From Botryllus schlosseri (taxonomy: Eukaryota), in contig CM119372.1 in the NCBI GenBank assembly GCA_051294905.1, positions 38,442,001 to 38,506,000 on the forward strand: a DNA stretch of 64,000 bases. The letters run 5' to 3'. The notes under the pieces are model-generated. The model ran no database searches. It was not told the DNA's origin and was given only the letters and a program-made list of their open reading frames with translations. Below, piece after piece: positions 14,757 through 38,429 of this stretch. A program made the position numbers and the translations under genes. How positions within the stretch are numbered: position 1 is the first letter of the stretch; every line of letters starts with the position of its first letter.

Positions 14757-15996
14757 GACTAGACGTAGGCTATGGTATTTCACTGCTTACTAAATTTCAT
14801 TTATGACCAATGCCTATTAGTAGTAATAGTGTGTGTGCTTGTTATCAGAATAGTGTGAAATGAGAAAATTAGTAAGTTCAATCTCTGTGTTAGTTGCTGA
14901 CTCATACACATGAGCAAGAGCTAAAATGGGAATTTTTATCTACATTTTGAATATACAGGATTAGATATATGTCATATTTGAATGATTCATACATATTAGG
15001 ATATTAGAGAGTTCATGTTATAAAAACTTATAAAATTTGACAAAGGGTGGATAGTTAGCAAATCATTCTTTCATGTTAATTGCATAGTGAATAATTCGAC
15101 CCCGCCGACCGCGTGTTTGAGACCTCTGCCCTAGGGCCTCGTCGGCAGAGCGCTTGCGCTCCGCCTTGAACTGATATTGTCTATGCTCTCCCTACCTTTT
15201 ACCAACAGTAATACTAACTGCACGAAGGTAAGAATTGAGTCGGCTACACGCAGCAGCTCTCGATGCGAAGTATCTCGCTGAGGCTTGATTATTCCCGATG
15301 AACGATCCGCAATTACCGCACAACCTTCCTCGGCGACGTCTGTACCAGCCAACTCCATATAGGATGCTGCGGCCGCTATAAGATATGTTGTACACAAACC
15401 ACTCACAAAGCAAGTTGATGAAAGACATTTAACATAAAAACGTCAGAAAAGAGAGAAGTAATTCATTTTGCGCACCACATGCATTCCATTGGCAGCATTT
15501 AAACGATTTCCTAATAAAATCATGAAAACAAATATCATACCAAGTTCATTTCATGGAATAATTTTCATAGCTCTTGGAAACAACGTTTTGACTGCTGTTG
15601 ACATTCAATGCAATATCCCGACACTGCGCATGTGTTTAAATTACCAATAAAAAATTTAGACAACAAAGCTTTAGCTGGGTCTTAAATATAGCATTGTGGA
15701 GATCTAGTTTCATCTTTGGCATTGGTTATTGTAGACGTTTGAGTTTGTAGATATTAGCTGACTATGCCAACATACCATTCTGCAACACTCTGGCAGGATT
15801 ACGTGGACTGAATTAATTTTCAATCCAACACTAGTCGGACTGGTAAATTTAGTTTGTTCAAATAGCAGAGCTAATAATGATGTCTCTAAAATGTTTGTTG
15901 GCATCATGATGTCTCACAATATCAGACAAAATGTGGATTGTAAGAAATTAATTATTAGTATGTATATTTGATCTGACATTAGAATCTCGTAATGTG

Positions 15997-18900
15997 AGTA
16001 GTTATTATGATCGGTCGTGAGCGGCTATGGGGTTCTTATGGGTGCGGCGGTGACTCGTATTGAAAACCCGGGGTGGTGACTCGTACTTTCAGACCCCCCC
16101 TCTCGGCCGTGATTCGTAATGGGTTCTTATGGACGCGGTCGTGATTCGTACTTTCGGGTATAGACTGCGGCGGTGACTCGTATTGAAAACTCGTGGTCGT
16201 GATTCGTACTTTCAGACCCCTCATGTGGTGGTGAATCGTATTGAAATACTCGTGTTGGTGAGTCGTAATTTTAGGTATAGGCTGCGTTGGTGAGTCGTAT
16301 TTTCGGGTATAGACTGCGGCAGCGCGGTGTTGAATATGTATCAAGTAAATAGTCACATGATTGATTCTTAGTTAATGTATATATTACAAATTATTATATA
16401 TGACCAATTTGAAGTAATCCCAACGTTTACGGTGAGCGCGACTTCGATATATCGTTATTCAAATGGATGCGGCGATGATTCGTACTTTCGGTTATAGACT
16501 GCGGGTGGTATGTCGTACTTTCAGCAAAAAGGGTGTGAAATAGTTTGCTAAATCTAGGAATCAGTCGCGTGGTGATGTTTTGGTATTTAGTTTACCACAG
16601 AGCCGGCTTAGACGGTGATTCGAATACCAACAATAGCCGCGTTCACATACTAACACTCCAAAAAGGTGTGAAATATTTGTAAAATCCTACGACCGCTCAC
16701 AAGATAACACATCAGAATAGCCATCTCTCGTGGTTTGATGTTACAAAGGTAGGAATGACGCACAAGTAATATTTTGGTAATTAGTTTGTCACAAGGCCGG
16801 CGTAGACGGCGCTTCCAATACCAACAATAGCCGCGTTCGCAAACTAACACTTCAAAAAGGTGTGAAATAGGTTGCAAATCCCGCGCTCGCTGACAAGATA
16901 ACAACTCAGACAGACACTCGCGATTTTTTGTTACATACATACCGATCGTTCACAATGTAATATTTTGGTAATCAGTATGTCACAGAACTGGATTTCGCCG
17001 GTAAGATTTAATAAGTAACGAATAACCGAACCGTCGCAGATGGTGATTCGAATACCGACAAATTCTCACTTATTTCTGATCCAACCCTAATCCTTTGCGA
17101 AGTTGGCGCTTTGTCAAAAAGGCGTGAAATAATTGTAAAACCCTACGTCGCTGACAGGATAATGCATCAGACATAGCGATCTAGTTATAGCACGGGTCGG
17201 AATCCATTCGCGAGATGTTCTATAGGTAAATTGAGGTAATCCGAAACGAAATATTTTGACTTGGTGTAGTGTGAATTGAAATAGGATTGACAAACATGAC
17301 TACCATCTTTCCAAGTACCATTTCGATATTATACGCACATTGATTTGAAACAAGTAATGAAAAACATTACAACTCTATTCACGACCCAGCTTTCCGTTTG
17401 TCAACGAGACATTTTAACATCTTACCATACTTAAAAGAATTATTCATAACATTAACCGGTGTTAAAAACATAGTTTTCACTTACTTGATTATATCACTAC
17501 AACTCGCAAACTTGAATTAATTCATCCTGGTTGTATTCATATGACCGATAATTTTTATTCAACTGTAAAGGTCGTTACTATTCTGTAAGACAAAGTATTT
17601 ACTCATCATTATATATACGACTTGACATAAACCTATTACATTTTGAGTATACGAGATTTGAATGTCCGAAAAATAACTGAGAATTAAATTATCACTAGTG
17701 AATCCGTATATTACAGCGTAAAAGATATTGGAATGTCAGCAACACTTTACGGTCATAGTTACAACCACAATAACTAATTTACCCGGCCAACACGTCATGA
17801 TCATTCCTGAAATCAACACAAACGCGGCCACTGACTTGAGTTAACCACAAAACGGCATCAAGTTTTTAATCCACTTGTAACTGACAGATTATTCGAATGC
17901 AGCGATGGAGAATATTATGGAGCTTGTCGATATTGTTACTTCAACAAATTATCGCTTACGCCGACTGCGAAAATTAATATCGAATGGTAATACTTGATCA
18001 CATATTTGTTGAACACAGACATGACGAAAAACATTACCGAGATTTTATAAACTAAACATATTACTTTTCCCATCTATCAATATCAGAATGCAAGTCAGCG
18101 AACTTTTTGTTAAATGTAAAATAGCACTTTTGGGAATCGGATTCGTTAGAGTCATACAAATTGTATTAAACCCAACACCAAAACAAAAGGACTTTTAAGT
18201 TCATTGAAATCAAATCATTCGTCTTCGACTTGCGCTTTATTAGATTGCACGCAACAATTCGTTACGAATGAGCTGTATCCAAAGTTAAGAAATCTTTGTG
18301 TCCACAGATATGGAAGATGAATATAGCTGACACAATCACGAATCGACGTTTCAGAGTATTTCACGGATGTAATAAACTTGTTAGTGTCGCCTATCTAAAA
18401 GTATGCATGCGTACGATTTCCATACCGACTGTTGCGATGTTTAGGATTCGCTTACAATGACCAAGAGTGAGGATTTAACATCAATGTCGTTACTGGCGGT
18501 ATTCACAACAGAGAATCGAAACATTACACAGTGTGAAAATATATCTTTGATATTAAAGCACTACCCCAAGTACACGATTAATACTCAACTCCGTTCACAC
18601 TTTCTATAGAACGCGCTAAATGTAAAATATCACGAGGTTACACTCTAAGACTTTGATCATTGCAAAAGTAAATTGGAATATGTTTGCCAGGTGCATTCAA
18701 TTCAGCTAGAAATGTCTAGTGCACAACAATCGTAATATCAAGGAAGTACTTGCTACACTGTAACTCAGTAAATGTGTTTTGCATTGTTGTTCATTTGTAG
18801 TATTGATTGAAATTGTTTTTTAACCTCAAAGAATAATTCCCGACATGAAACCAAGCCGCTGAAAGTCGTTACCAACACAAAGAAACAATTTGTACGATGT

Positions 18901-20607
18901 TTGCCAAATGTATCCTATAGTTAGGTTCACTAGAATTATTTGTGTAACTGTAACACATACAAATACACCGACAATGCAATCGAAAATTTTTCCGTTGTCA
19001 TCCGCTAAACTAAATGTCATCACAATACTCTGTCACTAAAAGACGTTACTTGTATGTGATTGAATTCCTAGCAACTCACTAAACCGAACTCCAAAGAAAT
19101 TTTACTCACTCGACGGATATGAAACAGCGTCCCTTAATCGGTCTATATCGTTTTTCTAAAGGCAAATCATATCCATCCAATAGAAAACAATTTTCACTAG
19201 CTTGGTAATGAAACCGAGGAGTGAGTCTTCATTCAATATTTTGTATGTGTCAAATACTTTGCAATAAACACACTGGAGTCGTCGAGCTTTACATCATCAG
19301 ACTGTAATCTGTAAATCAAGCTTACATCCGATTTGTAACTGTATTGTTTACCTAATCGAGTTGTATGCACAGTTTGATATTTTTGTCATTTAGTGATTGT
19401 TGAACATACCACATCGAAATACTACGTTGATCATAATTTCCATCATCGTGATAAGCGAAGTACATTTGTTTCGAATTCATAACAACCGACTTTTCTATGA
19501 CATGATAAATTATTGACAAGTTCTGCTTAGAAGATTGGTTGCATATCACGAAAAATAATATACCACTCATATTAATACTGTTACTCCATTCATCAGTATT
19601 TTTTTTCCGTTGTCGATTTTCAAACGAGTAAAATTTATTACTTGAGTTGTTCCGATTGCTATATTTAAATGTAAACTCACCCGTCTTTCAAAACCACAAC
19701 AAACAATGATAAAAAAAAGTATGCAATCAAACACAACAAGTTTTACTTTTGTAGGACACTAATTATTATTCCACGCATCTCATTTCATACCAAGTGTACA
19801 TGAAAGATATTCATGCCACACGAAAATATTCGATATATTCTCATGCTACGAACATACGCAATGATTAGTGACACTTTCAAACTGTTTCGATGTCACAAGA
19901 ACTTTATTGTCTGAACGGTTGTTCATGTATCTTAATATTCAAATAGTTCAACACAGAACTAGTACTAACAGAAACATCAGAGTTGTTTATACAAAAGTTT
20001 GTATGTGTGCAGTATGCGAATACCATGTGTAAGTCCAGCACAATTGCAGTATCCATCCGAGTTTAGTTAACACAAATTTATCACAACGGAGCCGCGTAAA
20101 CTTTCGTGAAAGAAAAGCATACTCACTTCCTGAGGGTTCTTTTAATGTCATAGCAATAAACCAGCTACTCCAACAAAAGAGTACATATGTTTTCTAGTAA
20201 CGACTCTCAAATCTTACACGCAGATCAATCTACTTTGCTAACGAAAAGTGCTGAGTCATCACATGATCATCCTCACAAATAACCAGTAGATGGAGCTGTA
20301 TTAAAATGTTCCTAACCCTTACCACGCCAGTGACAAATTTTACAATGGTTATGTTTAGTGAATCGAGTTGTTGTTCAGCGTCAAGTCTCCATGTTGAAGC
20401 ACACATTAAAACAGCGCAAATCCAAATAAAACCACGAATCTATTTTCATTTCCTCACAAACTACCACATACCGAAAAATAAATTTTCTTCCCCAGACACA
20501 TACTTATAACCAATCGCTTTCATTATACACACAGCCGCATAAAAGTATTTACTTTCTACAACAGAGACATTCCGATGTAGTCAAGAAATATTTTTATTAA
20601 TCAAAAT
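15997..20607 (+). repeat. Left arm of giant inverted repeat
   Basis: Collinear reverse complement of 22655-27258. Mirrored ORF-track entries: 16650-/26315+, 19352-/23689+, 20306+/22753-. Confidence 0.97.
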
Positions 20608-20667
20608 TATTAATCGGCTATGATAATGTCTGTGGATCGAAGGCTTACTCCCTCGATGTTTGTATAC

Positions 20668-21095
20668 CAGAGATGAGCGGATTTGAAATTTCTATGTCCT
20701 AATCCAATCCAAATCCGAACCTTCAAATCCAAATCCAATTCCTAATCCATAACTTTTTCATATTCAAGTCCATGTCCAATCCTAATCTGATTTCAACTGG
20801 AAATTCAGAAAAAATACTAATTTATGCAATGGAGGGATTCGGAAATTTTCTTTCACAACCAACGATTCACTTGATTCAAGATAACTTAGTAACCATAAGT
20901 ACATTAATAACTGATCTGAATAAAGTTTGTCGCCATTCGCCACACGACATTTCAATCTCCCAGAAAATAGGTAAATCCAATCCAAATCCTAATCCGTTCT
21001 GAAAAAAAATGTCTGATCCAAATCCAATCCAAATCCGTCAAAATTTCACAAATCCTGTTTTTTCAAAACCTAATCCTAATCCATGCTCATCTCTG
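20668..21095. mobile_element. hAT MITE with AATCC repeats inserted in the Polinton-like spacer
   Basis: TIR CAGAGATGAGC / GCTCATCTCTG, perfect TSD TTGTATAC. Confidence 0.92.
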
Positions 21096-21719
21096 TTGTA
21101 TACCAACACATTTCATGCAATGTCATACAACCCCCTCTATTTACGCGATCAATCGCGACGTATGTGTGGATGGTGCATTGGTATTTTTCGTGGAAACACA
21201 GGGTGTAACATGTTTACTTGAATATTGGTCGTTGGGTCATGATTGAATATCCGGATCCGGTTACATATACTTCCTCTCGGTTTCCGATTTCAAACTGAAT
21301 GTAGCGACATACATTGAGCAAAAAAGCCACAATATAGTAAACATGCGAGAGAAAACTCAACCCGGAATTGTTATCGCGATGGGTGACATAAATCCAACCG
21401 TTTTCCGAACACCGTTATCCACGTACCAACCAGGTGCCAAAATCGAGGGGGTGTTTAATTCAGACATTTTGACTCTGGACAATCCAAAGCACGAACCCGG
21501 ACATCACGTACATATCGAAACCTATTGTCCAATTTCCAAAACACACATTTCGTTGTACAAGAGCATATTGCATGTGGGTAACCGATGATTTTGATGGGAT
21601 GAACCAGCACAAGTAAATATGCGATTACACAAATGTATCGGAGTCGTTGTTGGTGTATATTTTGTCACTACCCGTTGTAACAATATACAAAAATATCAAA
21701 TTGTCGGGTGTGGTTGTCA

Positions 21720-22290
21720 GTACGAAAATGGTATTGTTTACCGTGGAAAAGATAGATTTCCAAGTGAAAACGGTATTGGTACTCAGGTAAATGATAGTTT
21801 TCCAAACGAAAAGGGTTTGTTACCCAGGGAGAAAATACAATTCCAAAAGAAAATGATTAGTTACTCTAGGTGAAAATAAATTTCCAAGTGAAAATGGTGT
21901 TCTGACTCGGGGTAAAAGTATATTTCCAAGTGAAAATGGTATTGTTACTATAGGAAAAGATGGACCGCCAAGTGAAAATGTATTGTTACTCTGGGTAAAC
22001 GGCAGATCTCCAAAGGAAAATGATATTTTTAATCAGGTAAACGATGGACCGCTAAGTGAAAATGTCTTGTTGCTCAAGGAAAATATAGATTGCCAAGTGA
22101 AAATGGTTTGCTACTCAGGGAAAAATATATTTCCAAACGAAAAGGTTATTGCTACTATAGGAAAAGGTAGATCGCCAAGTGAAATGTATTGGCACTCTAG
22201 GTAAACCAGAGATGTCCAAAGGACAATGATATTTTTACTCAGGTAACGGTGGACCTCCAAGTGAAAGTGGTAATTTTACATACGTAAACG
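21720..22290. repeat. Degenerate tandem array of about 42 bp, about 13 copies
   Basis: A CCAAGTGAAAATGGTATTGTTACTC-like core recurs every 41-43 bp. Confidence 0.85.
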
Positions 22291-22654
22291 TCGTGAGTTC
22301 AGTGTCATTGGTCTTGTTAAACGTAGTTGTCGAGTTTTACAATATACTTGTCGTGAGTATACAATTACGAAGGGAGAGAATGAAATTGCTATAATGAGTG
22401 TCAGAAGGTTGTTGTATGTAGATTTGACAGTAACCCTATCATTCACATATGACAATCACAATCATGACCGTGAATACATGTAACTAACTTGATCGGGCTC
22501 GATCAATGCAAAAGAGATGATTCGTTTTAAAACCGTAACCACATGTAGGTTGATGCGATTTCTATCTCCTTGCATTCAGTCGTGTCGTGTCCATTTTAAT
22601 ACGAGACCCACAGGTATGACATACACACACTAACACCGTGAACAGAAGTTGATG

Positions 22655-25600
22655 ATTTTGATTAATAAAAATATTTCTTGACTACATCGGAATGTCTATG
22701 TTGTAGAAAGTAAATACTTTTATGCGGCTGTGTGTATAATGAAAGCGATTGGTTACAAGTATGTGTCTGGGAAAGAAAATTTATTTTTCGGTATGTGGTA
22801 GTTTGTGAGGAAATGAAAATAGATTCGTGGTTTTAATTGGATTTGCGCTGTTTTAATGTGTGCGTCAACATGGAGACTTGACGCTGAACAACAACTCGAT
22901 TCACCAAACATAACCATTGTAAAATTTGTCACTGGCGTGCAAAGGGTTAGGAACATTTTAATACAGCTCCATCTACTGGTTATTTGTGAGGATGATCATG
23001 TGATGACTCAGCACTTTTCGTTAGCAAAGTAGATTGATCTGCGTGTAAGATTTGAGAGTCGTTACTAGAAAACATATGTACTCTTTTGTTGGAGTAGCTG
23101 GTTTATTGCTATGACATTGACAGAACCCTCAGGAAGTGAGTATGCTTTTCTTTCACGAAAGTATACGCGGCTCCGTTGTCATAAATTTGTGTTAACTAAA
23201 CTAGGATTGATACTGCAATTGTGCTGGACTTACACATGGTATTCGCATACTGCACACATACAAACTTTTGTATAAACAACTCTGATGTTTCTGTTAGTAC
23301 TAGTTCTGTGTTGAACTATTTGAATATTAAGATACATGAACAACCGTTCAGACAATAAAGTTCTTGTGACATCGAAACAGTTTGAAAGTGTCACTAATCA
23401 TTGCGTATGTTCGTAGCATGAGAATATATCGAATATTTTCGTGTGGTATGAATATCTTTCATATACACTTGGTATGAAATGAGATGCGTGGAATAATAAT
23501 TAGTGTCCTACAAAAGTAAAACTTGTTGTGTTTGATTGCATACTTTTTTATCATTGTTTGTTGTGGTTTTGAAAGACGGGTGAGTTTACATTTAAATATA
23601 GTAAGCAGAACAACTCAAGTAATAAATTTTACTCGTTTGAAAATCGACAACGGAAAAAAAATACTGATGAATGGAGTAACAGTATTATATGAGTGGTATA
23701 TTATTTTTCGTGATATGCAACCAATCTTCTAAGCAGAACTTGTCAATAATTTATCATGTCATAGAAAAGTCGGTTGTTATGAATTCGAAACAAATGTACT
23801 TCGCTTATCACGATGATGGAAATTATGATCAACGTAGTATATCGAAGTGGTATGTTCAACAATCACCAAATGACAAAAATATCAAACTGTGCATACAACT
23901 CGATTAGGTAAACAATACAGTTACAAATCGGATGTAAGCTTGATTTACAGATTACAGTCTGATGATGTAAAGCTCGACCACGCCAGTGTGTTTATTGCAA
24001 AGTGTTTGACACATACAAAATATTGAATGAAGACTCACTCCTCGGTTTCATTACCAAGCTAGTAAAAATTGTTTTCTATTGGATGGATATGATTTGCCTT
24101 TAGAAAAACGATATAGACCGATTAAGCGACGCTGTTTCATATCCGTCGAGTGAGCAAAATTTCTTTGGAGTTCGGTTTAGTGAGTTGCTAGGAATTCAAT
24201 CACATACAAGTAACGTCTTTTAGTGACAGAGTATTGTGATGACATTTACTTAAGCGAATGACAACGGAAAAATGTTCGATTGCATTGTCGGTGTATGTGT
24301 TACAGTTACACAAATAATTCTAGTACACCTAACTATAGGATACATTTGGCAAACATCGTACAAATTGTTTCTTTGTGCTGGTAACGACTTTCAGCGGCTT
24401 GGTTTCATGTCGGGAATTATTATTTGAGGGTTAAAAAAACAATTTCAATCAATACTACAAATGAACAACATTGCAAAACACGTTTAGTGAGTTACAGTGT
24501 GGCAAGTACTTCCTTGATATTACGATTGTTGTGCACTAGACATTTCTAGCTGAATTGAATGCACCTGGCAAACATATTCCAATTTACTTTTGTAATGATC
24601 AAAGTCTTAGAGTGCAACCTCGTGATATTTTACATTTAGCGCGTTCTATAGAAAGCGTGAACGGAGTTGAGTATTAATCGTGTACTTGGGGTAGGGCTTT
24701 GATATCAAAGATATATTTTCACACTGTGTAATGTTTCGATTCTCTGTTGTGAATACCGCCAGTAACGACATTGATGTTAAATCCTCACTCTTGGTCATTG
24801 TAAGCGAATCCAAAACATCGCAACAGTCGGTATGGAAATCGTACGCATGCATACTTTTAGATAGGCGACACTAACAAGTTTATTACAACCGTGAAATACT
24901 CTGAAACGTCGATTCGTGATTGTGTTAGCTATATTCATCTTCCATATCTGTGGACACAAAGATTTCTTAACTTTGGTTACAGCTCATTCGTAACGGAATG
25001 TTGCGTGCAATCTAATAAAGCCCAAGTCGAAGACGAATGATTTGATTTCAATGAACTTAAAAGTCCTTTTGTTTTGGTGTTGGGCTTAATACAATTTGTA
25101 TGACTCTAACGAATCCGATTCCCAAAAGTGCTATGTTACATTTAACAAAAAGTTTCCTGACTTGCATTCTGATATTGATAGATGTGAAAAGTAATATGAC
25201 TAGTTTATAAAATCTCGGTAATGTTTTTCGTCATGTCTGTGTTCAACAAATATGTGATCAAGTATTACCATTCGATATTAATTTTCGCAGTCGGCGTAAG
25301 CGATAATTTGTTGAAGTAACAATATCGACGAGTTCAATAATATTCTCCATCGATGCATTCGAATAATCTGTCAGTTACAAGTGGATTAAAAACTTGATGC
25401 CGTTTTGTGGTTAACTCAAGTCAGTGGCCGCGTTTGTGTTGATTTCAGGAATGATCATGACGTGTTGGCCGGGTAAATTAGTTAATGTTGTTATAACTAT
25501 GACCGTAAAGAGTTGCTGACATTCCAATATCTTTTACGCTGTAATATACGGATTCACTTGTGATAATTTAATTCTCAGTTATTGTTCAGACATTCAAATC

Positions 25601-27258
25601 TCGTATACTCAAAATGTAATAGGTTTATGTCAAGTCGTATATGTACTGATTAGTAAATACTTTGTCTTACAGAATAGTAACGACCTTTACAGTTGAATAA
25701 AAATTATCGGTCATATGAATACAACCAGGATGAATTAATTCAAGTTTGCGAGTTGTAGTGATATAATCAAGTAAGTGAAAACTATATTTTTAACACCGGT
25801 TAATGTTATGAATAATTCTTTTGAGTATGGTAATATGTTAAAATGTCTCTTTGACAAACGGAAAGCTGGGTCGTGAATCGAGTTGTAATGTTTTTCATTA
25901 CTTGTTTCAAATCAATTTGCGTATAATATCGAAATGGTACTTGGAAAGATGGTAGTCATGTTTGTCAATCCTATTTCAATTCACACTACACCAAGTCAAA
26001 ATATTTCGTTTCGCATTACCTCAATTTACGTATAGAACATCTCGCGAATGGATTCCGACCCGTGCTATAACTAGATCGCTATGTCTGATGCATTATCCTG
26101 TCAGCGACGTAGGGTTTTACAATTATTTCACGCCATTTTGAAGAAGCGCCAACTTCGCAAAGGATTAGGGTTGGATCAGAAATAAGTGAGAATTTGTCGG
26201 TATTCGAATCACCATCTGCGACGGTTCGGTTATTCGTTACTTATTAAATCTTACCGGCGAAATCCAGTTCTGTGACATACTGATTACCAAAATATTACAT
26301 TGTGAACGATCGGTATGTATGTAACAGAAAATCGCAAGTGTCTGTCTGAGGTGTTATCTTGTCAGCGAGCGCGGGATTTGCAACCTATTTCACACCTTTT
26401 TGAAGTGTTAGTTTGCGAACGCGGCTATTGTTGGTATTGGAAGCGCCGTCTACGCCGGCCTTGTGACAAACTAATTACCAAAATATTACTTGTGCGTCAT
26501 TCCTACCTTTGTAACATCAAACCACGAGAGATGGCTATTCTGATGTTTTATCTTGTGAGCGGTCGTAGGATTTTACAAATATTTCACACCTTTTTGGAGT
26601 GTTAGTATGTGAACGCGGCTATTGTTGGTATTCGAATCACCGTCTACGCCGGCTCTGTGGTAAACTAATTACCAAAACATCACCACGCGACTGATTCCTA
26701 GATTTAGCAAACTATTTCAAACCCTTTTTGCTGAAAGTACGACATACCACCCACAGTCTATAACCGAAAGTACGAATCATCGCCGCATCCATAAGAATAA
26801 CGATATATCGAAGTCGCACTCACCGTAAACGTTGGGATTACTTCAAATTGGTCATATATATTAATTTGTAATATACACATTAACTAAGAATCAATCACGT
26901 GAATATTTACTTGATACATATTCAGCACCGCGCCGCCGCAGTCTATACCCGAAAATACGACTCACCAACGCAGCCTATACCTGAAATTACGACTCACCAA
27001 CACGAGTATTTCAATACGATTCACCACCACATGAGGGGTCTGGAAGTACGAATCACCAGTACGAGTTTTCAATACGAGTCACCGCCGCAGTCTATACCCG
27101 AAAGTACGAATCACGACCGCGTCCATAAGAACCCATTATGAATCACGGCCGAGAGGGGGGGTCTGAAAGTACGAGTCACCACCCCGGGTTTTCAATACGA
27201 GTCACCGCCGCACCCATAAGAACCCCATAGCCGCTCACGACAGATCATAATAACTACT
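22655..27258 (-). repeat. Right arm of giant inverted repeat
   Basis: Reverse complement of the left arm; the match ends internally at ATTTTGATTAATAAAAATATTTCTTGACTAC. Confidence 0.97.
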
Positions 27259-27489
27259 AATGTGCAATCTGTTGATCTCAAGTCATATCCAACGAGCAAC
27301 AATTGAATCAATATCGACACCTTTTTCAGTCGCATACCGAAAACACAAGTCGTTTTAATATGAATGCAACAGAGTTCAATGTACTATATCATAACGCCGA
27401 GGCGGGAAGTCTATTCTTGTGGACTTACGCCGTGGATCAGTCATCCAAAAATCGAGTAGCGGTATGTTTACTATCGCCGCCAATTACAC

Positions 27490-28656
27490 TGGTCAACACA
27501 AAGTAAGAGACAGACACAGACAGAGCAAGAGTGGGTTTCGGGTTTCTGAAGGGCAGTGACTCCGAATATGACCTTAGTTTTTTCAAATTGACTCTGTTTT
27601 TGGAGATAATCCATGGGGCTATTTGCGACCTCGAGAACGCTACACGTTTGAGTTGGGGACCCCTGTTGTTGACAGTCATATGCATTGTTTGAATTATTGA
27701 AAAATGCTTCCACTTCATGCTCAAGATATTCAAATCCGCAGCAAAAGATCCCAACCTCCACATTTGGTTGTCACAAAGCACGAGAATGGCAAGATCCAGG
27801 GCTGGATTCTGGCAGATGACCACACAAATTCGTTCCGTACGGGCTTTGAAATGTTGATTGATATCATGGCTTGCTTTTATGCTTGGAACCTATCGTATCC
27901 GAAAGATTTTCAGATTTTGTCTTTCGTCCAACATGTCGTAATAGGCGACAAAAATGCTCAATATGTATCCACCAAATTGGCCGATTTCTTTCTCAGATTT
28001 CAACAGTCTGCTCCGGCAGATGACTTTTCCTCAGCACGGGTTTGTCACTGATTCGTTTGAGTAGAGTGCTCAATATGTGTCCACAAATTTGGCTGATATT
28101 ATTCTCAGATTTGAACAGTCTGTTCCGGCAGAAGATTTTATGAGCATAAGTTTCCCACTATTCGTTTATCGCGTAGTATACTTTACTAGTACGTTACATG
28201 GTACAAATTATGTAATTAGTTAAAGTAATTTTGTTTACTTGGACTTCGCATGTGGTTTATTTCGATGAGAATAGGACTGCCGTTACCATATTGAAAAATT
28301 AGAAAATCCGGCAAGGTATCCGGCTCAGATTTTTGCTGCAAGTCATATTCCTTAGCATGCATGTTGATGTTTCCGTTTATAATAAAATGTTCCTTATAAT
28401 GGGGGATTCAAAAATTTTTTTTGTCGTCGAGTAGACACCAGGTGGATTTTGTATCATTTCTAGGACAGAATGGAGCTCGACATGTACGCCAGATTATTTA
28501 GTATTCGATAGCCATTCGCAGCGAGGCAGCGCCTAGATCGGAAGCACCTTAATAAAAAACACAATCGACAGCATCTAGGACATTTTATGTGAGATATTTT
28601 TTAACGAAAAAAGTGCTGTCTTTTCTGCTTGCAACGTCATGAAAAAATTTACAGTG
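27490..28656 (+). mobile_element. Right-end fragment of a second CACTA element with a SAMD3-like C-terminal remnant
   Basis: ORF 27704-28051 contains IMACFYAWNLSYPKDFQILSFVQH. The fragment ends AAATTTACAGTG then TA (reverse complement CACTGTAAA, as at 34050). Internal duplication 27958-28030 / 28069-28140. Confidence 0.7.
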
Positions 28657-29439: not shown

Positions 29440-29615
29440 AAATTGAGACAACGCCAAATGTAATATTCTGACTTTTTCGTAGTGTGAATTGAGGTAGGAT
29501 TGACAAGCATGGCTACCAACTTTCACCCAGTCAAATTTCGAGATTATTCGCATATTGATTTGAAACAAGGAATTAAACATTAAACTCTATTAGCGATCTG
29601 GTTTATCCTTTGTCA
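29440..29615 (+). repeat. Diverged copy of Polinton-like arm segment 17228-17404
   Basis: Collinear blocks GTAGTGTGAATTGA..TAGGATTGACAA.CATG.CTACCA and ATTGATTTGAAACAAG..AACTCTATT..TTTGTCAA. Confidence 0.8.
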
Positions 29616-29801
29616 AAATTCGATTTTCGTAAATACTATCACCTTGGCGTCGCGATATTTCAGTGTGTGGCTACACACCATATAGTCAATGAATTAAACA
29701 TCACCCGATGTTGTAACTACTTTCAACTTTATAATCACGACCACCGGATACTTGAATCAATCACTGAGATATTATACCCGATGTTCTAATCACTTGCAAC
29801 C

Positions 29802-31117: not shown

Positions 31118-32415
31118 CAGCACCGTAACTGCCGCACCCCAAACCCCCGAATTAGGGGGGGGGGCCGAGCTCGAAGGGGGCCCAAAATTATTTCGTGAAT
31201 TAGCATAAATCATAGAGTATTCTTTGAAAATTTATGCAATTTTTTAAAAAAAATTTCGCGCTCAACGCGAATTCAAGTAGCCATTCATCTTTATTATTGG
31301 GTATCGCGCCCTTACCGCGCCACGACCCACCAAGACATAGCATCAAGTTTTAGGCCATATAACATGCAACTCCAAGAAATGTGCTGGAACGATCGGCAGC
31401 GAGAAAACCTTGGCCGAAAAGGTCTATGACCTTATGCTGACCGAAGACTTCGTTATATATACAAAATACATAAAGGTTTAATTGTCCATAGGCGCCTAAA
31501 TGACTGGCGCCGAATGTTCCTGCCTTTGCAATCTGAACCTCACAAGACAAATGCAATCCAGCTGGGAAAAATTTTATACCTGTGAAGAAATACCAATTTG
31601 AAATCGTGTGCGTCTCTTAGTTTAGAAGCTTACGTTTGGGCGATTCTACATTTTTTGATATAGCAGACTGGAAGTCACGAAATAACATTATGTAACGAAG
31701 TCATATCGACGGGTCCGCCCGCCCTAAGATGTTTAATTATTATTTACGAGCCCTCCCGTTTTCAAGACACTTCACTCAGCTCTACCGGTATATCTAATTA
31801 TACGTGAGTATAGAGAGGACAATAAATTGATAGCATAATATATATGCAATCGCCGATCTGATTGACCGATTTTATCATAAATTATCCAAAATTTTCGCGC
31901 CTCGCGCTGGCTCACAATACAGTACAGATGATTTCGTGACAAACGCGAACAACGTGATGGAGGGGTCGTTTCATCACCCTATTGGAGCACAAGACCCACG
32001 TTTTTTTGGGCCTGATGAGGTGCTGTTTCGTTCCTGCCAACGGGTATATACGCCCGAAGATGTTTAATTATTATTGAGTGGTCCTACCTTTTCAAACACA
32101 CCTCACTCAGCTCTACCGGCAAATCTGATTACGTGAGCAGAGAGTAGATAAAAATTGATAACAATATATATGCAATTCCCGATCATATTGACCGATTTAG
32201 TCATGAATTCTAGAAATTTCCCGCGCTCGGCGCGCTTAGGCGACAAAAGCTGATTCACTAAACAAACTCCCAGCGAGTATGATAAATAGCGGGAAACAGG
32301 CTATCGCCGGAGGGGGGTCTGGGTGGCGAAGTCCCCAGAAGTTCGGTCTATAACCCTATGGGGGGTTCAAGACCAAAGTTTTGGGGAGGCCTGACGAAGT
32401 GCTGTTACGGCCCTG
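31118..32415. mobile_element. hAT-Tip100-like non-autonomous element
   Basis: CAGCACCGTAAC / GTTACGGCCCTG, perfect TSD GCTACAAT, internal duplication (about 31725-31900 vs 32055-32230). Related copies at 44258 and 52830. Confidence 0.88.
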
Positions 32416-32511
32416 GCTACAATGGTAATTTACACCAGGCTGATACTTCTTATTGTTCATTCCGTAACCGCCGATTTTTAGCACGGCACATTCCTAGGCT
32501 TTTGTAAGACG

Positions 32512-32775
32512 TAGGGTTACCATATTTTTGAAATCTGGAAAGAAGACACTTTTTAAAAATTTTCAGACTCGTCTTCCGAAATAGCCGCTGGAGCGTTACT
32601 TCAGTGCTAATTTACTGTATCTCAGTCGATTTCGCCAAATATTTCACCAAAATTCTCAAAAAAGAGGACAAAATCTCCAAACAAAAAGACGACATTTGGG
32701 CGTCCTCCGAGCACACTTTCAAAAAAGTCAAAAAAGAGGAGAAATCCTCGTAAAAGAGGACTTATGGTTACCCTA
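32512..32775. mobile_element. hAT-Blackjack-like MITE
   Basis: TAGGGTTACCATA / TATGGTTACCCTA, TSD GTAAGACG / GTAAGATA, AGAGGAC subterminal repeats. Confidence 0.8.
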
Positions 32776-34049
32776 GTAAGATATCGCTTATACAAGGGGT
32801 CGCCAACTCAAAACGGGTTGCGGGCCACTTTTCAAATTTCGTAGAGGTGCGGACCGCATGAATTCAATATCGAGATTAATCAGGCCACACAGTTGAACAA
32901 CGACGCTATCTCGTCAATTACTCAACCCTAATGAATTGATATCTTGGTAAATTAGGGGCACCGGGGTTATGGAACGCCTTGAAATCTTAATTAAGGATTG
33001 CAACGTGTGTTTATTGATCAGCTAAAAGCGGACATGGCGGCGCCCGTATGACAATGCTATTCTCAAATCCACATTGTCTTCGTCATTATCGGCGAGAAAT
33101 GGCTTCGAAGTGACATTGCGGTCGTTAAAATACATTCATTAAATAGGATTTAGTCCTTGTATATGTGGATAAATGGGCGAATTTTGTATCGATTCAGCAA
33201 TACGGCCCGCCAAGTACTTCATTTTCCTATATCCGGCCCGCCGACTGGAGAAGTTGCCCTCCCCTGAATTAGACCATAGAAATATTTTAAAAATGAGATT
33301 AGAATTAAATTTCCGGCAATTCGATCCAATTAGTCTAAGAGTTGAGTAGAATACTACAATTATCTATTCTGGCAAAATGCAATCATCAAATGGAGAGCGT
33401 TGGAAATATAGTACCTCCCTATTACCTAAATGATCATGCTTCATAGAGAACGCTTCATCCATAACATGCATCACCAACATGAACACTGTCAAATGTAGTA
33501 ATCCCTTCATTGCTCATGGATGAATCCTGTTAATCTATGGTGAAGAAAACCCGACGTCATATTTTGCATGAGCATTAAAAATATATGTAAGCCTATGCAT
33601 ATTTTATTCCTTTCAATGATCGCAGATATTAGTCTGTCTACTGCAGAAACTTTGAAAACTCCAGCTACTCGGTGAATGTATATTCCATGGAAAATTCCAT
33701 TGATTTTGCACGTCCCACTAACTTACTGACAAACAGATAGCGACATTTTCTCCAGCTTAAGATACCACTGGATGAATATAAAGCTCTCTTCCATAGTAAT
33801 TATGGCTCTCGGCATTGCTTTTTATATCTCATGCGATGTTTTCCTGTTAGAGCTGTCAGCGTAATTCTGCCAAGTGTTGCGATATTCTCTGAATTTATTA
33901 TGCAATAAACAAATTCATTGTCCCGTAGTTTGAGAATGGTGGGAAACCTACATGACATGCAGTTAATTGCAATCGGTTCTGAATAAGTGTACCTGGAAAA
34001 AGGTGCTCGGTTACTGCCATATTCATAACCAGTGTCTTGACTATATATA

Positions 34050-37000
34050 CACTGTAAAAAATATGGTAGATTTACTGGGAAATCTCTGTAAATTTTACCA
34101 CGAATTACCGGTCGCAGCCAATTACTGCGCGTAGCTTGACATTTTACATTTTGATATGTAATATTACCTTAATATAGCTGTAAAGTAAGTTACCAGAATT
34201 TCTTCGCAAAATTACTGACAGTTACCCGTTACTGCAGTTTACCGGGCTATTGGCAAAATTGATTAGCATCAAAATCGCTGCAGCCAGTGTATACGTAGAA
34301 CTGAATGTTACTGATATATCATTCTAGAGGTGATTTGACCTGATTGAACCTCGTTTGCGAGACTGGGGTCTGTCACACCGAAATTGTTGGCCCTAGTATC
34401 AATTTAAGCTTAGTAGGGTACAAGAAATAACTGACAATCGTAGCTAATGTGGTATACCGTAGCCATATTATATTATAAGGCAATGGCTGTACGGCCACTA
34501 CGGCCAGTCTCGCTGGTTACATTCGTTGTCACGGATAAGGCTGATAAGTTAGAAAATTAGTTCAAAATGTATAATATTGCTCGGGGAAACTAGAAATATC
34601 AGCACCGCATGCTCAGCTGACCATTTGCTAATGGCGGACAAGGCGACCTGTAATAGGTTACATTAGGTGACTGCTTTTTCTGAGATTCGTAGTAAACAAC
34701 CAACGCACAACTGTGACATCACAAGCAGCGTCTGGTTAGGTAAGTACAGTAAGTAGTGAACAACACATAGAATATATATCAATTTATACGAAATTAGATG
34801 AAAAAAGGGACTATGTGCAATGCTAAATGTTTCTGTATGGAAAAAACGACCCTGATCAAACATTATAACGTGGCCAGTAAATATTATTGGTGTCATGTGT
34901 CAGCGGATGAATACCATTTATTTCGAAATCGTTCGAGTGTCGTCTGGCCAGTGGCCATTAGTGAGATTTGAGCAAAGGGTGGAGCCAAGCTTGTTGTGCT
35001 TGAAGAAAGTGGACGCGATCGTTGAAGATTCCTAGGAATGCTGAATGGAATACGCATCTAAAAAGGTAATACAGTACTACATAGTATTTGTTACCGTGAA
35101 TATCTGACTCTGCACACCAGCCCTCGATGACTTAGATTTCATGATTAATATATTTCATTCGCCGCATTCTCTGTTCTATTTTGGGATATTTGTCGACTTA
35201 TATAGTGACCACATACTCCGCTGCGGAGGAGTTGAAACTGTTGGCTTGGTAATGTCATTTTCGGGCCATAGCATAGATATGTTGGCACTTCTTCGTTATT
35301 ACCCACACATCCAGAAGTGATCACCATGAAACTAATAAATGATTCCCATGAACATGTGAAAATTTATAAACGTCAAAATAAATTGTTTTTCGCGTTGGGA
35401 TTAGGGCTAGGGGAATATTAGGGTCGTGGGAAGGGGGTATAACTCGTATAAGGGGGGGTTAGGGTCAAGGTTGGGATATCCTAAGATTAGGGTTGGGGAA
35501 GGGGTTATTAGGGTGGGTTAGGATATCCTAAGATTAGGGTTGCGGGACGCGGGTGCTAGGGTAGGTTAGGGTCAAGGTTGAGGTAGGATATCCCAAGATT
35601 AGGGTTAAATTTGGGGTCAGCATATCCCAAGATTATGGTTGGGAATATTGTCATCTTCACCCCCAACCCTAATCTTAGGATATCTTAACCCCATCCTTGA
35701 CCCTAACCCACCCTTATACGAGTTATATCCCCCATCCCTAATATCCCCAACCCTTATCTTAGGATATCCTAACCTAACCCTAATATCCCCAACCCTAATC
35801 CTAGGATATCCTAACCTAACCCACCCTAATATCCCCCGGCCCCCATCCCTAATATCTCCCGACCCTAATCTTAGTATATCCTAACCCCAACCTTGACCCT
35901 AACCCACGCTAATATCTCTCTCCCCCATCCCTAATCTTAGGATGTCTTAACCCTAACCTACCCTACCCTAATATCCCTCTCCGTCATCCCTAATATCCCC
36001 GAGCCTAATCTTAGGATATCTTAACCCTAACCTACCCTACCCTAATATCCCCCTCCCCATCCCTAATATCTCCCGACCCTAATCTTAGGATATCCTAACC
36101 CACCCTAATATCCCCCTCCCCCATCCCTAATATCCGTCTACCCCACCCCAACGCGAAATACAATTCATTTTGACGTTTATAAATTTTTTTGTTATTGTTC
36201 ATGGTAAGCATTTATTGGTGTCATGGGGATCATTTTTTCGATGTGTGGGGAATAACGAAGAAGTGCCGATATGTTTTCATCCACTGCTGGATTTGTTTGC
36301 CACACAAGCCACCTTAAGGATCGCCACTGATGCGTGTCGTTCTACATCCTCCTATCTGTTCATGAAATCGCATTGTGTCTTATCGCATTGTACATTGTGT
36401 GTGACTTGTTCAGATAAAAATATAACCCAACCATGTTATGTTATGTTATGTTAAATTAGGAACCTTTTGCTTCAATACAGAGATAAAGTCATGAATCTCT
36501 GCTATGTCATGTAAAAGGCGGAGCCGTCATCACACAATGTGCCAGTACCGGTACTTCAAAACATGTTATATTTTTGTTAGCCCATTTGTCTTAGTCTTTA
36601 TAATGTCATGTCCACTGTCCAGGTTAGGAACTTTGCTTTATATAGCGACTTACGCATGAATTCTTTTTAGTGGAACTGCAAGATACTACTTACACAGAAG
36701 GAATGAGAACGAGAAAAAGAAACAATTGGAAGTTTGGCCGGTGGTGGAATTAATTCACGTTTTCTTGAGACCACTCGTGTTACTGCATGTCTTCTAAAGA
36801 AGAATTAGACCTCCAGCAGCAATATTTTTCCATCGATAACCACTTCATCGTGATATCATGAATGAATATACAGTTTGTTCCAATGTCGTTTTGGGGATGT
36901 GAAGAAAATGTTGCGATATTTTTGCATCGGGTTGCTTTGCGATAGGTATGGATGTACGTGAATTTACAAGCTGGTATGTAATCCTGATTTACAGGGACAG

Positions 37001-37242
37001 CATGTAGGTAGGTAAGGTAGGCGGTAAAATGACAGTCTCGATCGCAAATGTACAGGAGAACATGTAGATTAGATATACCGGAGGTGACTGTAACATTACA
37101 GTCTGGCGTGTAAAGTGAGATTACCGGACGAGTGTAAGTTAAATTTACATTGACTAACGGTAATGTTAGATTACCAGGAAATGTCTGGCTACCGTGCTTC
37201 CAAACATTTCGCGGTAAATCGAGGTTTTTATTTTTTACAGTG
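34050..37242. mobile_element. Non-autonomous CACTA/EnSpm element
   Basis: TIR CACTGTAAAAAATA / TATTTTTTACAGTG, 2-bp TSD TA, TTAC/GTAA-rich subterminal regions at both ends. Confidence 0.85.
35284..36267. mobile_element. GG-terminal MITE (Merlin-like, tentative) with internal telomere-like arrays
   Basis: Imperfect TIRs of about 115 bp, GGCACTTCTTCGTTATT / AATAACGAAGAAGTGCC; perfect 8-bp TSD GATATGTT; TTAGGG-like tract 35398-35645 followed by CCCTAA-like tract 35660-36150. Confidence 0.85.
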
Positions 37243-38429
37243 TACAAACGGGCGTGGCCGTTTCCGAGCTTACTTTCGAAATGTAGTTAAGTTGCAAAAG
37301 TGATTGAATGCACGGCACCTGGCAGACTTCAACAAATGGATGAGTACATTTTTTATTAAGACAAATTAGAGCGAAATGACTTCAAGCATATGAATGAGGG
37401 CGCGACATTTTTTACTATCATAAAGGGGGCGTCTCTAAAAATCCCAGTGCAATTACGGAAGCAAGCAATTATCATTGTGGGACAACAAATGTATATTATT
37501 AAAAAACAAAATAGTTGGATATTTCTAGCAAAAATACCGGGAATCCAAAACGTGTACGACCACACCAAATTTATCATTGTGATCTTGTTCATATCCCACC
37601 GCAATGTAGAGAGATAGGAATTTTAGATTCAAAAGTTTATGTTATTTCAAAAAATGTTCAACGTGTGGAACAGTGGTTCCAACGCTTTTTGCCTGTGTGT
37701 CGGGGCCATATTTTAAACTGCAGAGTACGAATGGAGTCGCATTAATATACTCAAGTAATTACAGCGAAAACTTTAACGTATTAAACATGTATATCAGGTT
37801 AACTCCATTTAGGGGTTTCAAACGCTTACACATAAATTTCTATATAGACACTATATCGGTTATTTAAGCTTTAAAGGTCAACTGCATCTTCATGACAACT
37901 TTGCGGAATCATGTTCAGAATTTTTTTTCATAACGAAATTACAGACTTTCCGTGTTTCAACTCAATCGGAAATTGCCGTAATTTTGACTGAAAGTTCCAA
38001 TATTGGCATGTTTACAGAAAAAGCAGAATGTGCATTGTGACGTCAAGTGAGTGACACATATTTTATCAACACCGGTCCCAGCGGCTGTTTGTGTTCTCGC
38101 TGTTTTTATTCTAGTTAGTTATAGCCGAGGTTTCCATTGTAACGGATTTGCCAAGTGATATTGAAACTGAGCCCGAGTCTCGGATGTCGAATGTAAATAT
38201 CATTTTTGCACGTACTTTCAAAATTACCGTTCAAATGCGGGATTGGTTCAGGTGTTGATGCGATCGATCCCACGTCAGTGGAACCCCTTGCAGTTGCAGC
38301 TTCATATGATGGTGATGGGTCATCAGCCTAGCTTGCTCAGCGCAAGCCACTCGTCGAGACTACATGAAATGTAGTTGTATATGTAGTCTGTAGTGTAATA
38401 GCTCGTTTCAGTCATGTATCTTGATAAGT

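Follow-up and report, generated by a model that had tools for sequence, protein, structure and literature searches.

A palindromic, gene-less element with Polinton/Maverick ends in the genome of Botryllus schlosseri

The window considered here is a stretch of 64,000 nucleotides from contig CM119372.1 of the Botryllus schlosseri assembly GCA_051294905.1 (positions 38,442,001 to 38,506,000 of the forward strand), and it carries, at 15997-27258, an 11,262-bp element composed largely of two inverted arms. This element is probably an old, decayed copy of an abundant palindromic and non-autonomous family that depends on the Polinton/Maverick elements of the same genome. Because it combines Maverick ends and a 6-bp target-site duplication (TSD) with a tip of ~310 bp that is shared with coding elements, it appears to have been inserted by the same kind of integration as those elements.

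The element and its coding relatives

Both boundaries of the element are sharp. On the left (15996/15997), AATGTG is followed by AGTAGTTATTATGATC, and on the right (27258/27259), GATCATAATAACTACT is followed by a second AATGTG, which gives an end motif of (AGT)2//(ACT)2 and a TSD of 6 bp, both of them known from Mavericks. When the arms are aligned with each other they are 97.38% identical over 4,619 positions, with 112 mismatches and 11 gap columns; together they account for 9,227 of the 11,262 bp (82%) and enclose a spacer of 2,035 bp (20614-22648). The longest stop-to-stop frame overlapping the element has 115 codons (21857-22204), and none of the 58 frames of at least 45 codons in its left arm and spacer reached the Pfam cut-off. 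Neither Pfam on these frames nor tblastn with the frames of two coding copies found an rve integrase, a protein-primed polymerase (pPolB), a capsid, a protease or an ATPase module in the element; Rfam gave no match within it, and a phage collection gave none either, as expected. An earlier sequence-only reading of this DNA had described an 11,262-bp unit with AGTAGT..ACTACT ends and an exact AATGTG duplication, about 80% of it inverted repeat in arms of about 4.6 kb, and the junctions and the arm alignment agree with it on each count. Its ceiling of about 106 codons for any open reading frame (ORF) proved slightly low, although the lack of a recognisable gene stands, and the 2-kb spacer that it placed between the arms is present but is not a separate unique segment, consisting instead of unpaired inner right arm and a nested MITE (miniature inverted-repeat transposable element). 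The features of the element are as follows.

15991-15996, no strand: left TSD copy AATGTG, identical to 27259-27264
15997-27258, no strand: whole non-autonomous palindromic element, 11,262 bp, ends AGTAGT..ACTACT
15997-20613, + strand: left arm of the inverted pair (4,617 nt), with 97.4% complementarity to the right arm; in full-length relatives the outer part of the left arm is collinear with it
15997-16320, + strand: terminal region common to coding Polinton/Maverick copies, from genome search and alignment; mirror image at 26935-27258
16050-16299, + strand: nine GTGAYTCGTA-like subterminal motifs spaced 26-33 bp apart; mirror image at 27015-27205
20613-20614, no strand: private junction (deletion or template switch) joining the left arm directly to the innermost right arm
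20614-20667, + strand: innermost surviving right-arm piece, unpaired, upstream of the MITE and contiguous with 21096 onward in other copies
20668-21095, no strand: nested MITE, 428 bp; inverted ends of 11 bp, CAGAGATGAGC; duplication of 8 bp, TTGTATAC
21096-22648, + strand: unpaired inner right arm; in the full-length copies on contigs 8 and 4 it has a collinear counterpart in the right arm and a reverse-complementary one in the left
21724-22279, + strand: tandem repeat of 41-42 bp, 13.4 copies; homologous arrays occur in relatives and are standard in the inner arms of the family
22649-27258, - strand: still-partnered part of the right inverted arm, 4,610 nt, from the arm alignment
27259-27264, no strand: right TSD copy AATGTG, read directly

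Searching the 495-Mb assembly with the terminal 324 bp of the element returned 89 matches (40 of 1,945 first-look candidates were scored), many of them arranged as inverted pairs 8-22 kb apart. Six inverted end pairs were retrieved at first, two coding and four gene-poor, and two further gene-poor pairs later, so that with the window copy the full comparison set comprises seven gene-poor and two coding copies. The two coding copies are flanked by 6-bp TSDs (CACATA and CCTATA) and have the following extents and terminal inverted repeats (TIRs).

contig-9 coding copy: 3035033-3052709, 17.7 kb, TIR 309 bp
contig-2 coding copy: 32706338-32728126, 21.8 kb, TIR 782 bp

The coding copies carry an rve integrase core (E 5e-16 in the contig-2 copy), a chromo domain, and a P-loop ATPase that is recognised weakly (PF00910, E 1e-4). 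The N-terminal part of their long polymerase frame has relatives, at E-values down to 2e-102, among animal proteins of 1,100-1,450 aa that bear PF03175. The combination of polymerase and integrase is given as the criterion for Polintons/Mavericks in the available text of PMC5499653, and by that criterion the predicted proteins place both copies in this class. In end motif, 6-bp TSD and TIR length, too, they agree with the vertebrate Mavericks of PMC8097293. Pfam and PDB sequence searches with the read-through polymerase frame returned nothing significant, and PF03175 had zero matches in the whole genome and also in control genomes, which makes that search uninformative.

The tip of the element is 92.9% identical to the contig-9 copy over 312 nt and 86% identical to the contig-2 copy over 305 nt, with weaker likeness to ~480 nt. 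Nucleotide or protein likeness to the two coding copies is confined to this outermost ~0.3-0.5 kb, and tblastn with the interior ORFs of both found no match inside the element, its only match lying in the right flank at 27336-27461; a derivation of the interior by deletion from a helper is not borne out, although short Polinton ORF fragments are present in some other members of the family. The shared tip and the 6-bp TSDs of the coding copies thus uphold the earlier proposal of a gene-less relative of Polintons/Mavericks, and the exact TSD together with the Maverick ends upholds its integration as one unit. As for the autonomous element with the same termini that had been called for, polymerase, rve integrase and ATPase were found, but no capsid was recognised and both copies are damaged. 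Judging from the shared ends and the TSD length, the element would have been integrated in trans by the rve integrase of a Polinton.

The outer arms are further marked by the GTGAYTCGTA-like array, a motif that occurs 32 times in the window where 7.2 matches would be expected, with 24 of the occurrences falling in the outer 1.1 kb of the element, and which represents a set of candidate protein-binding sites. Other Polinton-related sequence lies in the right flank: the match at 27336-27461 is a weak protein match to a Polinton ORF (44% over 43 aa, E 8e-7), a family-arm fragment at 29440-29617 is 79% identical, and the segments 34050-35283, 36451-37243 and 31440-32177 are 96-98% identical to the interior of the contig-9 copy and 84-86% to that of the contig-2 copy. 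Lying downstream of the element, these fragments at 31440-37243 represent a Polinton remnant that is broken and separate from it.

A palindromic family with a loop gene

The family to which the element belongs comprises at least 150 scored copies and more than 1,000 candidates, and a typical full-length member is ~13.3 kb long, with arms of 6.2-6.8 kb that are 99.9% alike and a loop of 0.2-1 kb. Giant arms were found in all seven gene-poor copies in which both ends are present, with an identity of 97.4% in the window copy and the following lengths and identities in the six relatives, none of which has a long ORF.

6,483 + 1,124 nt: 99.75/98.5%
3,434 + 3,081 nt: 99.7/99.5%
2,934 + 1,482 nt: 99.1/97.6%
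2,191 nt: 99.0%
6,804 nt: 99.91%, spacer 182 bp
6,184 nt: 99.87%, loop 977 bp

A 2-kb inner-arm probe gave 43 matches at 89-97% identity (40 of 2,948 candidates scored), at least 11 of them being further inverted pairs. Since every one of the seven gene-poor copies is giant-armed and first-look arm candidates run to thousands, the palindromic form is an inherited trait of the family. Exact 6-bp TSDs flank eight of twelve end pairs (AATGTG, CCTGTG, CACATA, CCTATA, GACACT, ATCGTT, TACGGT and GCTGTC), and those of two more agree at five of six positions; further giant-armed copies with different 6-bp TSDs, which the sequence-only reading had anticipated, therefore do exist. Five of ten TSDs begin with CAC or end with GTG (AATGTG, CCTGTG, GGCGTG, CACATA, CACGAG), against ~3% by chance, and there may be a target-site preference. 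The contig-8 copy ends on the right in a single ACT rather than two, its 6-bp TSD TACGGT being intact.

The manner in which the arms change was followed in an alignment of 4,136 ungapped columns that contains both arms of the window copy, both arms of the contig-8 and contig-4 copies, and one arm from contig 15. Between the contig-8 and contig-4 copies, 219 differences are mirrored in both arms, as against 4 + 3 that are private to one arm, and because substitutions between copies are mirrored in this way (219 vs 7), the arms evolve in concert along propagating lineages. In the lineage of the window copy, 105 derived substitutions are common to both arms, as against 49 + 34 arm-private ones. 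The same relation holds across the family, in which the arms of one element are near-identical and separate elements differ by 6-30%. The arms are probably renewed at each propagation, through a hairpin or copy-back intermediate. The 112 mismatches between the arms of the window copy are spread evenly (4-16 per 500 bp), 57 being left-derived and 45 right-derived, as expected from the independent decay of an identical starting pair, and this argues against efficient conversion of one arm by the other in place. On that reading the window copy, with its 2.4% arm divergence, would be many times older than the copies whose arms differ by 0.1-0.3%, and the nested MITE and the loss of its centre are in keeping with a greater age.

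The family is not without coding sequence. A 92-codon ORF lies in the loop of the contig-8 copy (L053:374-652, - strand). Of 1,205 genomic candidates for it, 150 were scored as matches, with amino acid identities of 89-100%, 147 of the 150 being free of stops. It occurs once per element, in a central position. Three of the seven gene-poor copies have it: the first is identical, the second is intact and shares 60% identity, and the third, at 62%, contains two stops. Neither the window nor either of the coding Polintons contains it. Between two intact but divergent loop ORFs the ratio of non-synonymous to synonymous substitution (dN/dS) is 0.22, and the first, second and third codon positions differ 27, 16 and 43 times. 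The ORF has no Pfam family, no ESM Atlas neighbour and only three close database relatives, and its AlphaFold model is unusable (predicted local distance difference test, pLDDT, 35). Since the loop ORF is conserved in the family, the description "gene-less" holds for the window copy and not for the family, many copies of which carry this gene. In five copies of one subfamily, mirrored inner-arm markers stand 1,063-1,122 bp apart, and because of this constant spacing and the conservation of the loop gene, the loop is inherited rather than drawn anew in each cycle.

Two further observations concern the composition of such palindromes. The arm cores of the contig-8 and contig-4 copies are 94% identical, their outer ~1.1 kb ~65% identical, and their central ~1.3 kb mostly unrelated, and the family looks modular, with ends and centres swapped between lineages. 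Frames with a Bcl-2 domain (PF00452) are also frequent in the genome (at least 150 scored of 290 candidates, 149 of them stop-free) and lie mostly in inverted pairs 3-13 kb apart, as at C4:13120613-13126176 and C1:28028912-28032308; one pair lies between window-like arms on contig 7. None occurs in the window or in the two full-length relatives, and their arrangement points to a second palindromic family, the arms of which would hold Bcl-2.

Origin of the palindrome and of its shortened centre

The geometry of the window copy, with 4.6-kb arms around a 2-kb spacer, is secondary, since in typical relatives the arms measure 6.2-6.8 kb and the loop 0.2-1 kb. In comparison with the contig-8 copy, ~2.7 kb is missing: the loop is gone entirely, and so are 1.6 kb of inner left arm and ~0.1 kb of right arm. 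The mirrored copies of a 71-bp marker are 2.1 kb apart in the window copy, a distance that is 4.2-10.2 kb for the other 13 pairs listed. The resulting 20613/20614 junction, at which a microhomology ATCAAAAyTA can be made out by comparison with a relative, is spanned by no other copy among the 40 scored of 1,177 candidates. Central deletion of a palindrome and a copy-back template switch yield the same product, and either could be the cause of the 2.7-kb loss: it would have occurred at the short microhomology, by deletion in place or, as is possible, by a template switch in the last round of replication. The MITE inserted later. Its duplication TTGTATAC stands at 20660-20667 and 21096-21103, and it is absent from other family copies, the contigs of which skip it (joint 20640 to 21096). 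Presumably the MITE at 20668-21095 is hAT-like, given the length of its duplication; k-mer depth is the highest of the stretch over it, which marks it as a high-copy repeat itself.

Two routes could produce arms that are identical at birth. A displaced single strand may fold into a long hairpin, in which mismatches are repaired and the arms are made identical, or, in the course of protein-primed replication, copy-back may use one arm as the template for synthesising the other anew; once inserted, the two arms would decay independently, in the manner of long terminal repeats (LTRs). A single-stranded "racket" intermediate, copied by the Polinton's own polymerase, was reportedly modelled by Kapitonov and Jurka in 2006, and the hairpin-repair route fits this model; the copy-back and snap-back forms found among defective viral genomes accord with either route. 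The family as a whole may have originated by copy-back or snap-back. We are more doubtful of a bolder version, which makes the family a genuine satellite of a Polinton virus, one that has only the helper's ends, is copied as a hairpin by the helper's polymerase, carries a selected loop gene and is maybe packaged in helper capsids, with the window copy as a fossil that lost its loop by template switch. Regeneration of the arms in each cycle would explain the 219 mirrored as against 7 private substitutions, and such a satellite, if real, would offer direct genomic evidence on the replication of Polintons, which has so far been unobserved.

Several results weigh against a palindromic family dependent on the Polintons of this genome, or limit how far that account can be carried. 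The comparison set is small, two in-frame stops interrupt the polymerase frame of the contig-2 coding copy, and the contig-9 one is in fragments, so that an intact helper is not among the two; Pfam gave no polymerase-domain call on their polymerase frame, and a capsid or protease match in none of 70 frames. Two of the twelve end pairs lack a matching TSD, and the contig-15 relative, the second closest by arm identity, has no right arm in the 15 kb examined and a left arm that is broken by ~6 kb of other DNA. The hairpin or copy-back replication intermediate is something that we infer, arm-to-arm gene conversion in master copies would leave the same mirrored substitutions, and the sequence fits a 2.7-kb loss before insertion as well as one after it.

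The sequence-only reading had taken the window molecule for a de novo copy-back defective genome, made by mirroring one end of a parental Polinton and then integrated once. Its structure does have the form described for such molecules: the ends are complementary, and a unique stretch continues from one of the arms (the available part of PMC13506859 defines copy-back and snap-back forms so). A short microhomology marks the arm boundary, as a template switch predicts, and the 20613/20614 junction is private to this copy. The palindromic state of all seven gene-poor copies, larger still in the relatives, shows however that the mirror structure is older than the window copy; only the tip is common with the coding copies, the interior ORFs of which have no match in the arms, and a plain deletion over the palindrome centre ends in the same structure, so that at most the shortening was a private switch. 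A single copy-back accident is accordingly not supported, and we regard a de novo origin of the window molecule as improbable. A fold-back transposon of an unrelated cut-and-paste superfamily (Foldback/Galileo-like or MULE-like), the likeness of which to Polinton ends was coincidental or captured, is very unlikely. Very long TIRs, internal tandem repeats and a lack of coding sequence are a Foldback-like hallmark, and non-autonomous Galileo copies consist mainly of two TIRs; the TSD is, however, 6 bp and not the 7 bp of Galileo, and Galileo TIRs reach only 1.25 kb (all in the consulted portion of PMC3573991). Likeness to pPolB/rve elements, moreover, begins at the first base and extends over ~310 bp at 86-93%, and neither the 58 frames nor tblastn revealed a transposase from another class in the element, a P-type partner elsewhere in the genome not having been searched for.

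It is scarcely tenable that the structure is an artefact of assembly or a host inverted duplication that arose in place. Long palindromes are generally known to arise as long-read fold-back artefacts and from breakage-fusion, but the element has defined ends with a 6-bp TSD, dozens of copies with different TSDs are dispersed in the genome, and its arms have diverged by 2.4%. The left junction is crossed with zero differences (15300-16035) by unitigs of three runs, and the right junction (27212-27586) by unitigs of one run, all from the probable source sample and at single-copy depth at both junctions. Because of these crossings, and because the arms differ at 112 sites, an assembly artefact is unlikely. 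A joint of 15996 to 27259, as left by an empty site, is not among the 12 of 46 joints listed for contigs of three source-sample runs and one other sample aligned with 15300-27900, the second sample covering only 15387-15552 of the left flank; as to polymorphism, this result is neutral. The left flank is single-copy, with one full match and two short weak ones in the genome, and thus without a paralogous empty site.

If the element is a decayed member of a palindromic family that depends on Polintons, the consequences reach beyond this locus. A large family with arms of up to 6.8 kb that are identical at birth and then decay like LTRs is the footprint expected of a hairpin or panhandle intermediate, and it would provide a clock for dating insertions. 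Polinton ends alone would suffice for massive amplification, which bears on how virus-like elements and their parasites shape animal genomes. For repeat annotation, such palindromes are likely to be mis-assembled or misclassified, and the window copy illustrates that they can lose their centre together with the family gene and so mimic independent copy-back events.

Comparison with known systems

Mavericks/Polintons with (AGT)2//(ACT)2 ends resemble the element in their end motif, 6-bp TSD, subterminal repeats and a tip that is 86-93% identical. The element differs from them in having no pPolB, integrase, ATPase or capsid and in its arms, which measure 4.6 kb here and 6.2-6.8 kb in intact relatives. 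Within the sections available of each source, vertebrate Mavericks are described with this end motif, a 6-bp TSD and TIRs of 46-1,447 bp (PMC8097293), Maverick/Polinton TIRs in general are given as 100-1,500 bp (PMC10748475) or as "hundreds of nucleotides" (PMC8969392), and TIRs of ~2 kb are mentioned for some butterfly polintons (bioRxiv 10.1101/2025.02.07.637071). Full-text searches, supplements aside, found no description of palindromic non-autonomous derivatives of Polintons. The family thus appears to be new as a palindromic variant of Polinton-type elements, with ends and a 6-bp TSD that were already known for Mavericks.

Foldback/Galileo elements share with the element long, internally repetitive arms, and their non-autonomous copies consist almost only of TIRs; the subterminal repeats of Galileo are thought to be secondary binding sites, according to the accessible text of PMC3573991. 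They differ in their 7-bp TSD and their membership of the P superfamily, whereas the element has arms 4-5 times longer and the ends of a self-synthesising, integrase-based class.

Copy-back and snap-back defective viral genomes, as they are treated in the part of PMC13506859 at hand, are likewise mirror-image molecules with little or no coding capacity that keep only the helper's ends for replication and integration, and the same part cites Daniell and Mullenbach (1978) for defective DNA of adenovirus. Such genomes are transient by-products of infection, mostly of RNA viruses, whereas the family of the element is heritable and integrated, with at least 150 scored copies, many of which have a conserved gene of their own.

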